Shown here: positions 2,181-62,112 of the stretch, in pieces | How positions within the stretch are numbered: the first letter of the stretch is position 1 | Layout of the letters: every line of letters begins with the position of its first letter | Source: a phage | DNA length: 64,000 nt | Strand: one strand, 5' to 3' | Sequence record: PZ347775.1 | Program-made: the position numbers and the translations under genes | The notes under the pieces: generated by a model | Database searches by the model: none | What the model saw: the letters and a program-made list of their open reading frames with translations, nothing else | Told to the model about the DNA's origin: nothing

Positions 2181-2210
2181 TTCAATTTCCTCATTTGTTT
2201 TGGTAGAGCT

Positions 2211-2240
2211 ATAATATCACAACTCTACCGTAAAGTAAAC
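2211..2240 (-). promoter_or_regulatory. sigma70 early promoter (GTTTAC -35, 18-nt spacer, TATTAT -10) overlapping a stem-loop
   Basis: Reverse complement reads GTTTAC-18nt-TATTAT upstream of ORF starting 2180; 7-bp inverted repeat ggtagag/ctctacc spans the -10. Confidence 0.5.
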
Positions 2241-2242
2241 TA

Positions 2243-2518
2243 TTAAATTGCTTTGAATTCTGATGTCTGCGATTCAAAACGAATATCGCCTTTGATAACT
2301 AACTCAGCATCAAGACCAAACACAACAATAATATGAGCAGAACCTGGATACAGAGTAATTGCAATAGAATCCACTTGGTCTGGAAGCAAAGCGTTCAATA
2401 CATGAGTCACTTGAGCGTGGATTCGAAGTTCAGCTGCATTATCAAGCTTTTCAAACATGTTATTAGCGATAATTTGGCTAAATACTACTTCTACGATTTT
2501 AGAATAAGTCGGAAACAT
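2243..2518 (-). CDS. hypothetical protein (91 aa)
   Basis: ORF track. Confidence 0.55.
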   Translation of the reverse strand: MFPTYSKIVEVVFSQIIANNMFEKLDNAAELRIHAQVTHVLNALLPDQVDSIAITLYPGSAHIIVVFGLDAELVIKGDIRFESQTSEFKAI

Positions 2519-2520
2519 AT

Positions 2521-2721
2521 TTACCTCACATAATTTTCTTCAAGCCAATCAATAACATCCAACGCATTATCAAAAGTTGAACCATCTACTTTGTCTTCTG
2601 TTTCATAATCAAGAACATCTAAGCCTACTCTTCCATCAACAATAGGCCATAGACAAAATAGATATTTCTTTTCTTTTTCAATTTTATCACAAAGTCGATA
2701 AATCTTTTCTATGTTATTCAT
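2521..2721 (-). CDS. hypothetical protein (66 aa)
   Basis: ORF track. Confidence 0.5.
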   Translation of the reverse strand: MNNIEKIYRLCDKIEKEKKYLFCLWPIVDGRVGLDVLDYETEDKVDGSTFDNALDVIDWLEENYVR

Positions 2722-2911
2722 AAGTTTTCCATGGTAAAGGCAGTTTAGTTTTCTTTACTGTTAGTTCAATATCAGGATTCTTTTCTCTTAATTTAAGGCA
2801 TTCCTCCCAAGCTCTTATTTCACTAGTGAATACACAAAATTGCCCATTACTAGTACCAACTAAACCACTATTTACAATAACAATAGACCAAGTTTCATGA
2901 TGCCACGCCAT
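2714..2911 (-). CDS. hypothetical protein (about 65 aa)
   Basis: Track ORF 2714..2941 trimmed to internal Met (MAWHH...) so start overlaps pseT stop by 1 nt. Confidence 0.4.
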   Translation of the reverse strand: MAWHHETWSIVIVNSGLVGTSNGQFCVFTSEIRAWEECLKLREKNPDIELTVKKTKLPLPWKTYE

Positions 2912-3819
2912 TAAAAATCTCCCGAAGCAACTTGCCAGCATTCAACACCAATACGACGCCACATTTCAACTACTTGAGTTCGGTCATCAATAGCTAATTT
3001 CACATCAAAATGCGGTGCGATGTGTTTCCAGAAAATTTCTTCTTTAACTACATCATCTTTACGGGTATCGCCTTGTTCACGTTGACATTGCATAACTAAT
3101 GGAACGCCAGCAATATCCTCAACCCATTTACGGGTCATACGATAATATTTCGTTGGGTCTTCTTCGGTTCCACTTTCACGGCCTGAAACGACTACGATGT
3201 AATATCCTTGCTTATTGTACATCTTAGCTAGTTCAATAACCATAGGATTGACAACATCAGTATCACATTTTTCAAGGTCATAAGGACCACGACCATTCAT
3301 TTTTGCTAGTGTGCCATCAACATCAAAAATAACTGCTTTTGGTTTACCAGGAGTCCCTTTGTATACCGGAAGACCGAGATACTCTCGCATGCTTTTATAC
3401 ATTGAGCGTAAAACATCAATTGGTACTGCTTTAGTTCCACGTTTTGAGTTACGTTTAACTAGATCAGTCCAAGGAACATCAAACACTTTATATTCAACTT
3501 TCCAGCCGTATTCTTTAGCAAAAGTTTCCCATGCCAGGCGACGTTCAGGATTCAGGTTAGTATCTGAAATGATTACTCCCTTAACAGAATCGCCACCGTA
3601 CAGAATATTTTTAGCTGTATCAAACTGCATACCAGATACGATGCCTTCTTTCTTTTTGGTATACTTATACTCATCGCGTTCTTCATGTGCCATAATAGAT
3701 TGGCGATAGTCATCACGATTGATATTATAAAATCCAGGATTTTTAGCAATAAATTCACGAGCCCAAGTACTCTTACCTGAACCAGGACATCCAACAGTCA
3801 AAATAATCTTTTTCATCAT
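2911..3819 (-). CDS. pseT: polynucleotide 5'-kinase / 3'-phosphatase
   Basis: 302 aa; N-terminal Walker [10 protein letters not shown]; C-terminal HAD motif DVDGT; matches T4 Pnk architecture. Confidence 0.9.
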
Positions 3820-4136
3820 TTAATTCCTAAGAAAACTTCAAGAATACGAATATTATGCTCACGCCGCCCTTTATATAATTCAGCTGTTGATTGATTCACC
3901 GATTTGCTCTGAACATTAGATGAAATAAATTTTATCATGTGATTTTTAAGCTGATACATATCAAGCCCACGGGCTTTTGCTTCTTTTCGTAGGGCTTTAC
4001 CAGCATCATCTAAAGCTTTCGCAGGGTCTTCATCATTTAATACTACCCCACGGTCCAAATCCATATATACTGCACCATTACATGCATCAATGTAACGGTC
4101 TGAACATTCAATATAACGTTCTAACAGAGTTTTCAT
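3816..4136 (-). CDS. hypothetical protein (106 aa)
   Basis: ORF track; alc-pseT interval. Confidence 0.55.
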
Positions 4137-4139
4137 TTA

Positions 4140-4370
4140 TTATTTCTCAACCAATGATTGAATATAATCATGCAAGTCTTTAGATGCTTTACCCCACTTA
4201 TTTTGGTATTCATTTTTAAGATTAGCCCGAGATTGAGCTAATAAAACATCATTAGTTGGAGGTAAAGATTCTAACCGTTGAATCTGGCGTCCATAAATCA
4301 TTGCAGCCATCTCGGATTCATAAATCAATCCTTTGAGATGTTCAAATTGATGCCATGAAATCATTTGCAT
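4140..4370 (-). CDS. hypothetical protein (76 aa)
   Basis: ORF track. Confidence 0.5.
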   Translation of the reverse strand: MQMISWHQFEHLKGLIYESEMAAMIYGRQIQRLESLPPTNDVLLAQSRANLKNEYQNKWGKASKDLHDYIQSLVEK

Positions 4371-60195: not shown

Positions 60196-60926
60196 TCACC
60201 GTTATAATCTTTTTTCGCAATATGGGTTTCGCCAGTTTTCCACCAATGGTCAACCAAATAAAAATGACGGGAATACACATGAAGGCTCCCGACATTCCAT
60301 ATAATGGAACCTGCTTTATACTGACGAGTTGAATCACCTGCATTCAAATCAGATACTAATTTATCTAGTACGTATTTTTGCCATGCATAATCATTACGGA
60401 ATCCGAAGACCACGTCATTTGAACGCATGTTAACCACTGCATTAATTTTCTTATCACGAATCAGGTACTGTACTGTATTAGTACACATGAAATCTGACAT
60501 GCCATCTTTATTGTAGTCAAATTGCATGGATGGACGAGTATAAATCATGATACCACGTCGAGAATCAGGATTTTGACCAAGTTCAGCTAAACACATATCA
60601 TATTGGGCATAGTTATCTTCTGACCAGATGGCCCAACCATAATTCGAGTTAATTTCGCCTTTAGAAGATGCTACCTGCTGCCAAATCTTTGGTGTTTCAC
60701 CTGGAATATCTTTAACAAACAGACTTTGAGACTTATACCATTCAAGTTCACGCTGAATGTATTCATCATTAAGAGCGCCAAAAATAAAAGGTTCATCTGC
60801 TACAAATGATGCACCAATAATTTCAATAGTTTTAACCCCGGTTTTATCAATTACGAAATCTTTTTCCTTTAATGCAAGACCCAAATCAAGACGGATTTCT
60901 TCAACTGTCATATAATCGTTAATCAT
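60186..60926 (-). CDS. 42: dCMP hydroxymethylase
   Basis: 246 aa as T4 gp42; thymidylate-synthase-like fold. Confidence 0.9.
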   Translation of the reverse strand: MINDYMTVEEIRLDLGLALKEKDFVIDKTGVKTIEIIGASFVADEPFIFGALNDEYIQRELEWYKSQSLFVKDIPGETPKIWQQVASSKGEINSNYGWAIWSEDNYAQYDMCLAELGQNPDSRRGIMIYTRPSMQFDYNKDGMSDFMCTNTVQYLIRDKKINAVVNMRSNDVVFGFRNDYAWQKYVLDKLVSDLNAGDSTRQYKAGSIIWNVGSLHVYSRHFYLVDHWWKTGETHIAKKDYNGEWK

Positions 60927-60933
60927 TTAAACC

Positions 60934-61083
60934 TCAATTGATGCATTCATATTTAATTTGTAACAGTAATAAACTCCAACCTATAATAAGTGGCGGAATC
61001 ATAAGAGGAACTGTTACGCTATAGTATATACTTATTATAATCATTAAGATTAAAAGCAATACTGCTAAAATTTTGCTTTTCAT
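60934..61083 (-). CDS. small membrane protein (49 aa)
   Basis: Hand-read ORF MKSKILAVLLLILMIIISIYYSV...; ATGA overlap with imm stop. Confidence 0.35.
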   Translation of the reverse strand: MKSKILAVLLLILMIIISIYYSVTVPLMIPPLIIGWSLLLLQIKYECIN

Positions 61084-61331
61084 TCCTTCTCTCTGATGAT
61101 AATTACTTGATTTGGCTGTGTTGACTTTTTAGTTTCACCGGCAATTGACCAAATAAATGTAATAAACCAACCAATGATTGACCAGTTAAACAGTAAAGAT
61201 GTGAAAAAGATTCCTACTGTCGATTTTGACCCACGCATCAAGGCGATGAACCAAGGAAGCATGTATATAATAATAGCCAACACGCCTGAAACTAAAACCA
61301 TAAAAATTGAACCTGCTACTAAAGTTTCCAT
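61080..61331 (-). CDS. imm: immunity (superinfection exclusion) membrane protein Imm
   Basis: 83 aa, two TM helices; between 42 and 43 as T4 imm. Confidence 0.7.
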   Translation of the reverse strand: METLVAGSIFMVLVSGVLAIIIYMLPWFIALMRGSKSTVGIFFTSLLFNWSIIGWFITFIWSIAGETKKSTQPNQVIIIREKE

Positions 61332-61338
61332 GTTTTCC

Positions 61339-61719
61339 TTACTTAGTCAAATTTTTTACACATGAATTATAAGAATTTACTACATACTCCATCGGAGCAT
61401 TTTTACCGGTACGCCATTGGTAATTATTAGCCCAATTTGCCCAAAGTTCAGCACAGTAGTTTTCAATTTTTTCTTCACGCGTAATCACATCTGAATTACG
61501 ATATGCTTGTGCAGATTCATCTGGACGAATAGCTTCGTCAAAATTCGCCTGCATTTGTTCTACTGTCTGTTTTGGAGCCTCTTTATAACACTTGACGTTA
61601 GGATTATAAAATTTGCTTGAACAGTTTACAATTTTTCCTACATCAGACTGATTTACTACTGGTCCTTGAGCTACACATCCAGTAAGACCCAATGCAATAA
61701 CCAAAATAGCGATTTTCAT
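61339..61719 (-). CDS. predicted lipoprotein (126 aa)
   Basis: Signal peptide + lipobox ALGLTGC. Confidence 0.55.
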   Translation of the reverse strand: MKIAILVIALGLTGCVAQGPVVNQSDVGKIVNCSSKFYNPNVKCYKEAPKQTVEQMQANFDEAIRPDESAQAYRNSDVITREEKIENYCAELWANWANNYQWRTGKNAPMEYVVNSYNSCVKNLTK

Positions 61720-61729
61720 AATAATTTCC

Positions 61730-61966
61730 TCAAATACAAGTAGTAATTACTCCAGTAGTGCTTACACAGGTATTACCTAATTGAACACCCAGCGTTCCAT
61801 TAGTATTCATATGAAGATTATCATCAATTTTTGTTGATACTTTACCATTCATGTGAATAATAGTATTAGATTCAATCACATTCTGAGTGTCATTTTCAAT
61901 ATCAATAAATGGAACAGTTGCTAATGCAACTAAACACACTGCTAAACAACCATAAACAATTTTCAT
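61730..61966 (-). CDS. secreted/membrane protein (about 78 aa)
   Basis: Track ORF trimmed to MKIVYGCLAVCLVALATVPF (signal-like N-terminus); upstream track residues are promoter cassette. Confidence 0.45.
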   Translation of the reverse strand: MKIVYGCLAVCLVALATVPFIDIENDTQNVIESNTIIHMNGKVSTKIDDNLHMNTNGTLGVQLGNTCVSTTGVITTCI

Positions 61967-62000
61967 TTTATTCTCCAAATCCGTATCAGTTGATAGTTGT

Positions 62001-62030
62001 ATAGTATCATGGAAGAACGGGAATGTAAAC
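62001..62030 (-). promoter_or_regulatory. sigma70 early promoter (GTTTAC -35, TACTAT -10), cassette copy C
   Basis: Reverse complement GTTTAC-18nt-TACTAT; leader nearly identical to copy B at 34595-34637. Confidence 0.55.
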
Positions 62031-62112
62031 AGTTTTGTGAAAAAATTTTTAATGAATTTACAGGACCTAGAATCATCTATTTTTCCTAAGTATAGATTTA
62101 TATTACTTGTAT

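Follow-up and report, generated by a model that had tools for sequence, protein, structure and literature searches.

A phage sequence of 64,000 nt (record PZ347775.1; the whole stretch is referred to below as the window) contains a family of short intergenic cassettes, each with a GTTTAC-type hexamer and a TAnnnT box at a fixed distance, followed by a leader and a start codon. The combined evidence makes it very probable that these cassettes are T4-like sigma-70 early promoters, that approximately half of them carry an embedded hairpin of read-through RNA, and that they are occasional crossover points. On the basis of sequence, the sites are assigned as T4-type early promoters (Pe), orthologous to those of T4. 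The term "early-promoter/stem-loop cassettes", used in a preliminary description of this DNA, was correct and matches the published concept of promoter/stem-loop (PeSL) cassettes (PMC2839356, PMC4122927). The cassettes therefore represent already known biology: both the combination of promoter with stem-loop and its proposed role in shuffling were published in 2010 and 2014.

Predicted T4-type early promoters of the window

The exact motif GTTTAC-N18-TA(T/C)(T/A)AT was found 13 times, on the minus strand only, compared with 0.10 matches expected from shuffled sequences. Relaxed searches gave 15 matches for GTTTAC-N16-19-TANNAT (1.0 expected) and 18 for GTTTAC-N18-TANNNT. A position-weight scan with spacers of 17–19 nt, which was the kind of matrix check proposed in the preliminary description, detected 20 sites on the minus strand and none on the plus strand (approximately 0.1 per strand in shuffles). 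This analysis revealed 19 credible copies, none of them on the plus strand, besides 18411, probably a chance match, and a pair of truncated copies; the minus-strand family, for which at least 12 copies had been claimed, is thus real. Of the credible sites, 17 combine an exact GTTTAC with a spacer of 18 nt; the other two deviate, by a 17-nt spacer in one case and by ATATAC in place of the -35 GTTTAC in the other. The 14 positions originally given comprise ten exact matches and four genuine variants (-10 TATAGT near 47419, 55782 and 56285; -35 ATATAC near 42600), and the copies overlooked were 5565, 28372, 43821, 55204 and 55496, together with the chance match 18411.

The predicted promoters are listed below with the position of the T4 orthologue and the properties of the overlapping hairpin, where present (ΔG, folding free energy in kcal/mol; z, z-score of the fold). 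In the text the sites are named by their higher coordinate (e.g. 2240 for 2211..2240). Open reading frames (ORFs) are given with their length in amino acids (aa); SD denotes the Shine-Dalgarno sequence, and indel an insertion or deletion.

62001..62030, minus: -35 GTTTAC, -10 TACTAT, upstream of a 76-aa ORF and imm.1; T4 orthologue with its -35 at 27080; no overlapping hairpin (z +0.25), separate terminator-like hairpin upstream at 62118-62135
56285..56314, minus: -10 TATAGT, upstream of dmd, -35 box overlapped by the gp41 stop codon; T4 orthologue 20612; hairpin 56272-56307 with the -10 box in its loop (ΔG -21.8, z -6.2)
55782..55811, minus: -10 TATAGT, upstream of an 84-aa ORF; hairpin 55769-55804 (ΔG -18.0, z -4.7)
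55468..55496, minus: 17-nt spacer, upstream of a 63-aa ORF; 8-bp A/T-rich inverted repeat whose fold is not significant (z +0.55)
55175..55204, minus: upstream of sp (spackle); T4 orthologue 20109; no hairpin
50856..50885, minus: upstream of mrh.2; T4 orthologue 15288; classical terminator 50900-50921 with a T-run directly upstream, overlapping hairpin not significant (z -1.0)
48754..48783, minus: -10 TATGAT, upstream of modB; T4 orthologue 13186; hairpin 48720-48763, in which the -10 region is paired with the following gene's SD and AUG (ΔG -16.4, z -3.3)
47419..47448, minus: -10 TATAGT, upstream of srd; T4 orthologue 11851; no hairpin (ΔG 0)
43792..43821, minus: downstream of dexA; T4 orthologue 8218, by its map position probably the P8.1 of the literature; hairpin 43772-43814 pairing the spacer with the SD GAGGA (ΔG -23.7, z -7.1)
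43640..43669, minus: upstream of motB; T4 orthologue 7215; hairpin 43627-43661 with the -10 box in its loop (ΔG -17.4, z -3.2)
42607..42636, minus: variant with -35 ATATAC, upstream of a 93-aa ORF and cef; perfect 13-bp hairpin 42588-42630 (ΔG -20.1, z -6.8)
38912..38941, minus: upstream of rIIA.1; T4 orthologue 2458; small intra-spacer hairpin TACCACA/TGTGGTA, not significant alone (z -0.8)
34632..34661, minus: downstream of denB; T4 orthologue 167086; intra-spacer hairpin ACCACA/TGTGGT
33907..33936, minus: upstream of an ndd.4-like gene; T4 orthologue 166807; hairpin 33882-33926 pairing the spacer CTGTTCCTC with the SD GAGGAACAG (ΔG -23.2, z -6.3)
28343..28372, minus: upstream of asiA; T4 orthologue 161211; no hairpin (z +0.4)
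17855..17884, minus: upstream of rnh, where this gene and gene 34 diverge; T4 orthologue 150763; no hairpin
13961..13990, minus: upstream of frd.1; T4 orthologue 146143; hairpin 13953-13983 (ΔG -17.8, z -3.8)
5536..5565, minus: -10 TACAGT, upstream of alc; T4 orthologue 136336; hairpin 5509-5559 pairing the spacer with the SD region (ΔG -25.2, z -6.2)
2211..2240, minus: between cd.3 and a window-specific 175-aa ORF; T4 orthologue 133331-133302; hairpin 2202-2229 (ΔG -16.3, z -5.4)

Sites not counted as credible copies:

~30807..30850, minus: truncated motA early promoter, compared with T4 163673; -10 box, TGn and the 3' part of the spacer kept (coordinates approximate)
~14660..14690, minus: remnant (-10 TACTAT) of the early promoter found in T4 at 146875 (coordinates approximate)
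18382..18411, minus: perfect GTTTAC-N18-TACAAT, antisense inside gene 34 and conserved in T4 (151291)

The surroundings of the hexamers were examined with an independent matrix, trained on 59 promoters of other T4-like genera and scored without both hexamers. By this flank-only score, 18 of the 19 scored window sites exceeded the 97th percentile of background and 13 exceeded the 99.9th. The top score of all was reached by 42636, the variant with the deviating -35 box, while 13990 had the top score under the independent matrix; 55204 has a weak upstream flank (97.5th percentile). The exception was 18411 (17.6th percentile), which also lacks an SD-ATG at the usual distance. Its flanks resemble background and it is therefore probably a chance match, conserved in T4 because it lies in the coding sequence of gene 34; it was rejected as a member of the family, although it could be an antisense start. 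As stated in the preliminary description, the cassettes continue into a leader ending in an SD (GGAG, GAGG, AGGA or GAGA) and ATG, which 18 of the 19 credible sites possess 25–44 nt past the -10 box; at 28372 the pattern search found none. Outside the hexamers, the median identity among the cassettes is only 33%.

Early promoters of T4 have been characterised for decades. Their architecture consists of UP, -35, TGn and -10 elements with extra conserved regions (Hinton review, PMC2988021). The same arrangement is found in the window, i.e. a -35 GTTTAC (TTTACa in the sigma-70 register) and a -10 TAnnnT placed 17 or 18 nt apart, and, as judged from the consensus and the flank scores, an A/T-rich UP region, a TGn and a conserved region around +1. 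The sites are co-oriented upstream of prereplicative genes and occupy positions orthologous to those in T4. All except the window-specific ones have a T4 orthologue with the same motif; these orthologues were assigned by sequence. In the orthologue of 2240, the -10 box ends at 133302 and the start is expected 7 nt further on, at 133295, in exact agreement with the GenBank note in AF158101, 'early promoter Pe133295 between cd.2 and cd.3'. This single misc_feature apart, the T4 records NC_000866 and AF158101 contain no promoter features. The consensus published for PST/T4 PeSL promoters, TTTACW-N17-TAYWAT (Comeau et al. 2014, PMC4122927), is the motif described above in another register, and the consensus of the window therefore equals the published one.

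The strand bias extends beyond the window: in 80 loci of T4-like phages (1.59 Mb), fetched around gp41, rIIB and gp32, the early-gene strand carries 211 copies of the motif and the opposite strand one. A scan with the generic sigma-70 (E. coli) consensus revealed no excess over shuffles (74 vs 80.8 and 88 vs 76.8 matches), and the enrichment is confined to the promoter in its T4 form. This result, as well as the chance-like match 18411, could be taken to favour an origin of the matches by chance or from A+T-rich composition, an explanation to which we attach practically no weight. It is refuted by the shuffle statistics (13 exact matches vs 0.1, on a single strand), by the strand bias of the 80 loci and by the flanks conserved under the independent matrix, and the sites are, moreover, orthologous to T4 early promoters. 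MotA-dependent middle promoters were also rejected, since a MotA box (TGCTT) centred near -30 was absent from all 20 spacers examined, -35-type hexamers being present instead.

A cassette would thus consist of an A/T-rich UP region, the -35 GTTTAC, a fixed 17/18-nt spacer often ending in TGn, the -10 TAnnnT, a 25–44-nt leader, the SD and ATG. Host RNA polymerase (sigma-70) would fire the cassettes straight after infection, so that each would start an immediate-early transcription unit on the early-gene strand.

Hairpins embedded in the promoters

An inverted repeat across the spacer had been noted earlier for many copies. Such repeats are indeed often present, but their usual geometry is different: the -10 box forms part of the loop, flanked by a left arm within the spacer and a right arm beyond the box. 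Only at 34661 and 38941 is the hairpin wholly intra-spacer. Stem-loops lying in the interval from the -35 to the -10 box, or overlapping the latter, are also the commonest positions described by Arbiol et al. (2010, PMC2839356).

Stems of 7 bp or more without a mismatch were found at 7 of the 20 sites (0.63 expected; maximum of 4 in 2000 shuffles), and the summed stem lengths in the window gave a z of approximately 7. RNA folding identified significant structures (z ≤ -3.2, ΔG from -16 to -25 kcal/mol) at ten of the 19 credible sites: 56314, 55811, 48783, 43821, 43669, 42636, 33936, 13990, 5565 and 2240. The remaining sites comprise the two with small intra-spacer hairpins and seven without a hairpin; separate terminators lie upstream of two (50885 and 62030). 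Among 95 mutually divergent T4-like promoters, stems of at least 7 bp occur in 21 (2.6 expected) and of at least 8 bp in 16 (0.54 expected). Arms drawn from different promoters pair equally well in just 4.7% of cases, so the complementarity is site-specific and no by-product of the consensus.

The hairpin of the gp41-dmd promoter is retained across T4-like genera by compensatory change, with different arm sequences in phages whose gp41 identity ranges from 99% down to ~63%. In an alignment of 17 distinct sequences, 68% of cells are paired, compared with 31–45% when the partners are slid; 12 of the 14 stem pairs have changed on both sides, and the covariation score of 0.419 was not reached in any of 500 shuffles (at most 0.206). 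Mismatches internal to the stems are predominantly G.U (21, compared with 4 A.C and 1 other; 8, 2 and 0 for representatives alone), in contrast to chance stems (14 G.U, 12 A.C and 69 other). This bias on the sense strand points to pairing of that strand, for which RNA is the simplest form. Taken together with the covariation, it indicates that the stem-loops are under selection for pairing.

In about half of the cassettes, the 5' arm of the predicted hairpin is located in the spacer and the 3' arm just past the -10 box. Since transcripts of the cassette itself start downstream of the 5' arm, the hairpin would form only in read-through RNA and not in locally started RNA, and it would attenuate or insulate the read-through transcripts. 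With moderate confidence, we consider such attenuation or insulation its most likely role, because expression fell as much as with rrnB T1 when a PeSL stem-loop from RB49/phi1 separated lacZ from a promoter (PMC2839356). In a terminator scan, 48725-48759 was the sole overlapping hairpin listed, besides the separate upstream terminators 50900-50921 and 62118-62135. More speculatively, the -10-straddling hairpin could be a selected RNA element that marks the origin of a transcript and gives read-through RNA a different fate (stability, termination or translation), a proposal that we regard as possible, albeit doubtful.

Gene gain and loss at the promoters

The preliminary description had also suggested that the cassettes delimit exchangeable gene modules, and that their positions be compared with synteny breakpoints. 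In a comparison with T4, CrRp10, TH09, CAM-21, teqhal and five IMG/VR Tequatrovirus contigs, 11 of the 58 distinct indel endpoint clusters in the early regions fell inside a cassette (2.4 expected if uniform). When gene junctions of 15 T4-like clusters were pooled, endpoints were found at 13/35 promoter junctions and 85/477 others (odds ratio 2.7, p = 0.008); the underlying gene calls are crude, and plastic regions may be rich in promoters and indels alike.

Crossovers inside promoter cores were detected at three points, 55204, 55484 and 55806. The 600-bp segment 55206-55805, absent from T4, L009 and L011, is bounded by the GTTTAC of two promoters, its crossover falling within the -35 box of 55811; a chimeric junction at the -35 box of 55204 would fit the weak upstream flank of that site. 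A deletion in L028 (55204|55484) ends in the spacer of 55496, with the microhomology GTTTACTTTTGT. The junctions 55205|55806 and 55204|55484 thus lie within the GTTTAC(TTTTGT) of two promoters, as expected of inter-cassette recombination in PeSL systems. A further case in favour is 42636, which sits in a 112-bp promoter island (42556-42667; 98% identical to T4) between the window-specific insertions 42356-42555 and 42668-43099.

At several other cassettes the endpoints adjoin the promoter. A 519-bp ORF is inserted exactly at the ATG of 2240 (2178), a window-specific ORF begins at the ATG of 34661 (endpoint 34595, in 8 comparisons), and the endpoint 61959 at the ATG of 62030 is common to T4 and L028. 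Endpoints flank 13990 on either side (13940-13949 and 13997-14001), and right after the start codon of 43821 (43744-43754) a deletion has removed motB.1 and motB.2, which 7 relatives possess.

Both truncated promoters have their breakpoint in the spacer. At motA, a GC-rich hairpin, GGGAGAGCC-GA-GGCTCTCCC, is found in place of the -35 box, and an indel endpoint lies at ~30816 relative to L054-L056, which carry 317–397 bp more. Downstream of gene 32 (breakpoint 14680), a 116-bp deletion located in the region 14641-14700 and seen against all six comparators covering the site removed the last 7 codons and stop of gene 32 and its terminator, together with the UP element and the -35 box belonging to the next promoter. 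The C-terminus of gp32 now reads into the promoter remnant, an altered 18-residue ending replacing ...ADDTDLDDLLNDL*, and its acidic tail is therefore changed.

As short conserved sequences at gene boundaries, the cassettes may thus sometimes act as crossover points in gene gain and loss, as one source of endpoints among several. The competing view, that the promoters play no causal part and that promoters and indels are both merely located at gene boundaries amid small dispensable genes, is a serious contender that we hold to be somewhat the less probable. Approximately 85% of endpoint-bearing junctions have no promoter, and the microhomologies are mostly ATG or ATGAAA at start codons; the endpoints assigned to 2240, 34661, 42636 and 62030 coincide precisely with a start codon and show such microhomology, like those of promoterless junctions. 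Many events are introns or homing endonucleases, others being the gene 39/60 split, a glucosyltransferase replacement and the gp37 tip. Homology of ~90–100 bp is shared only by 62030, 34661 and 42636 (89–104 bp, 72–82% identity; 82% over 89 bp for the first two), so that long-homology exchange between cassettes would be merely occasional; together with the low identity outside the hexamers, this led to the rejection of the cassettes as long dispersed repeats. What speaks for a causal part is the pooled odds ratio, the three junctions whose crossover point falls inside GTTTAC(TTTTGT) of two promoters, and the mini-circles of RB49/phi1, which arise by inter-cassette recombination (PMC2839356).

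Two other explanations concern the hairpins. According to one, they mainly hide the SD/AUG of the first gene in read-through RNA, so that translation would occur only from transcripts of its own early promoter. Four window sites (33936, 43821, 5565 and 48783) pair the spacer or -10 region with the SD/AUG, striking cases exist in L030 (TTCTCCAGTAGTTG/CAACTACTGGAGAA) and L042, and at 14 of 84 promoters the accessibility of SD..AUG is <0.5 in read-through RNA and >0.75 in the promoter's own RNA. Promoter-in-hairpin translational control is, moreover, established for T4 e, soc, 49 and I-TevI, an arrangement with late promoters (reviewed in PMC3014915). Against this, the 3' arm ends 6–14 nt before the SD in most hairpins, and across the 84 divergent promoters the mean SD..AUG accessibility in read-through RNA was 0.635, compared with 0.620 with a shuffled spacer (Wilcoxon p = 0.20). 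Sequestration was therefore rejected as the general function, and we judge it unlikely to be the main one. Still less probable, in our estimation, is that the inverted repeats act as DNA (cruciform or single-strand hairpin), being recombination targets that make the cassettes mobile. This was speculated in PMC2839356 and would accord with the five indel endpoints located inside promoter cores or their remnants; G.T pairs would also be tolerated in single-stranded sense-strand DNA. However, the observed crossovers fall outside the stems, in the GTTTAC box and at ATGAAA, and a sense-strand wobble bias is unexpected for a duplex cruciform, in which both strands must pair. Cruciform extrusion is also unfavourable with loops of 6–17 nt.

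Several results weigh against the combined reading of the cassettes as early promoters with read-through hairpins and occasional crossovers. We infer promoter activity in this phage from orthology and consensus, and 9 of the 19 promoters have no significant hairpin. No U-tract follows the overlapping hairpins, whose tails are A-rich or mixed, and they were accordingly rejected as intrinsic (Rho-independent) terminators. The idea that an overlapping hairpin replaces an upstream terminator was likewise unsupported (2/10 vs 19/85, p = 1.0), and the G.U bias is equally compatible with RNA and with single-stranded non-template DNA. In the window alone, endpoints occur at 9/18 promoter junctions and 29/88 others, which is not significant (odds ratio 2.0, p = 0.135), and the link between promoters and indels may reflect their co-clustering in regions of small dispensable genes. 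The module borders proposed earlier are thus only moderately supported: the excess of endpoints inside cassettes and the pooled test speak for them, while the window's own junctions and the location of most endpoints do not.

Genomic context and relation to known systems

By sequence comparison, the window is a segment of a Tequatrovirus (T4-like phage), collinear with T4 from cd to gene 43. A megablast search with 30000-50000 returned 985 phage records, headed by Tequatrovirus genomes of ~97% identity, and the best matches carry rIIA, rIIB, topoisomerase, dda, motA and dexA. As indicated by the annotation of the best RefSeq relative and by blastn against T4, the collinear region runs from ~131.6 kb through 168.9 kb and on to ~29 kb of T4. 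The minus strand contains early and middle genes (cd to rnh; asiA to gene 43) and the plus strand, at 17929-28038, the tail-fibre genes 34–38 and t.

Several differences from T4 were observed. The large topoisomerase subunit (38941-40761, minus) is a single 606-aa ORF in which genes 39 and 60 are fused, and the gene 60 bypass element, 60.1 and mobA of T4 are absent, as are its td and nrdB introns, mobE, segG, segF and segA. A 216-aa ORF resembling HNH/NUMOD3 homing endonucleases (52114-52764, minus) occupies the position of T4 dam, where most close relatives are empty. A second motB-like gene (42671-43090, minus; Pfam motB, E = 6e-20), absent from T4 and L053, adjoins motB and is flanked by the 12-nt repeat GCATAAAGTTTA at both stop-codon regions. 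Six small ORFs are not found in T4 (1653-2180, 3816-4136, 12142-12489, 41093-41470, 55252-55750 and 61730-61960); the ATG of each replaces or abuts that of the next gene, and a Pfam search with the six gave zero matches. Pfam was uninformative for most inserted ORFs, ORF 13347-13682 being identified as DUF7247. The proximal tail-fibre gene 34 contains a 70-bp direct repeat (19451-19520 and 19934-20003; 74% identity).

The cassettes possess every testable defining feature of T4 early promoters: the -35 GTTTAC, fixed spacing, TGn, -10 TAnnnT, A/T-rich upstream region, early-gene orientation and orthologous positions, including the annotated Pe133295. Nothing essential differs from T4; the window phage has the extra copies 55496 and 55811, has lost the -35 box of two promoters (that of motA and that downstream of gene 32), and has one copy with -35 ATATAC. 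The cassettes also fit, with qualifications, the description of PeSL cassettes (PMC2839356, PMC4122927), in that both consist of an intergenic early promoter, stem-loop, SD and ATG. Their consensus is identical to that of PST/T4, the stem-loops lie in the interval from the -35 to the -10 box or over the latter in both, and an association with indels, including the ndd region, may also be common to both. In contrast to the published cassettes, a significant stem-loop is found in only about half of the window copies, the stems contain more A/T than the GGGG/CCCC ones of RB49/phi1, an upstream terminator-like hairpin (the position given for PST) occurs at only 2 copies (50885 and 62030), and the indel association is moderate and, in the window alone, not significant. 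The T4 genes e, soc, 49 and I-TevI (PMC3014915) likewise have the 5' arm upstream of the start of an internal promoter, so that there, as here, only read-through RNA would form the hairpin; their promoters are late or middle ones with a hidden SD/AUG, whereas those of the window are early and hiding of the SD is not general.

Since this family is ordinary and already described, its value as a discovery is small. The present analysis contributes support, both statistical and comparative, for the view that the stem-loops are selected, and it tested ribosome-binding-site hiding as their general purpose with a negative outcome. At the level of junctions, the association of the promoters with gene gain or loss is estimated at ~2–3-fold, most events occurring elsewhere. 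For annotation, the 19 predicted sites define the immediate-early transcription units of the phage. If the -10-straddling hairpin does mark the origin of a transcript, it would be a general insulator embedded in the promoter, and not an incidental terminator or recombination signal.

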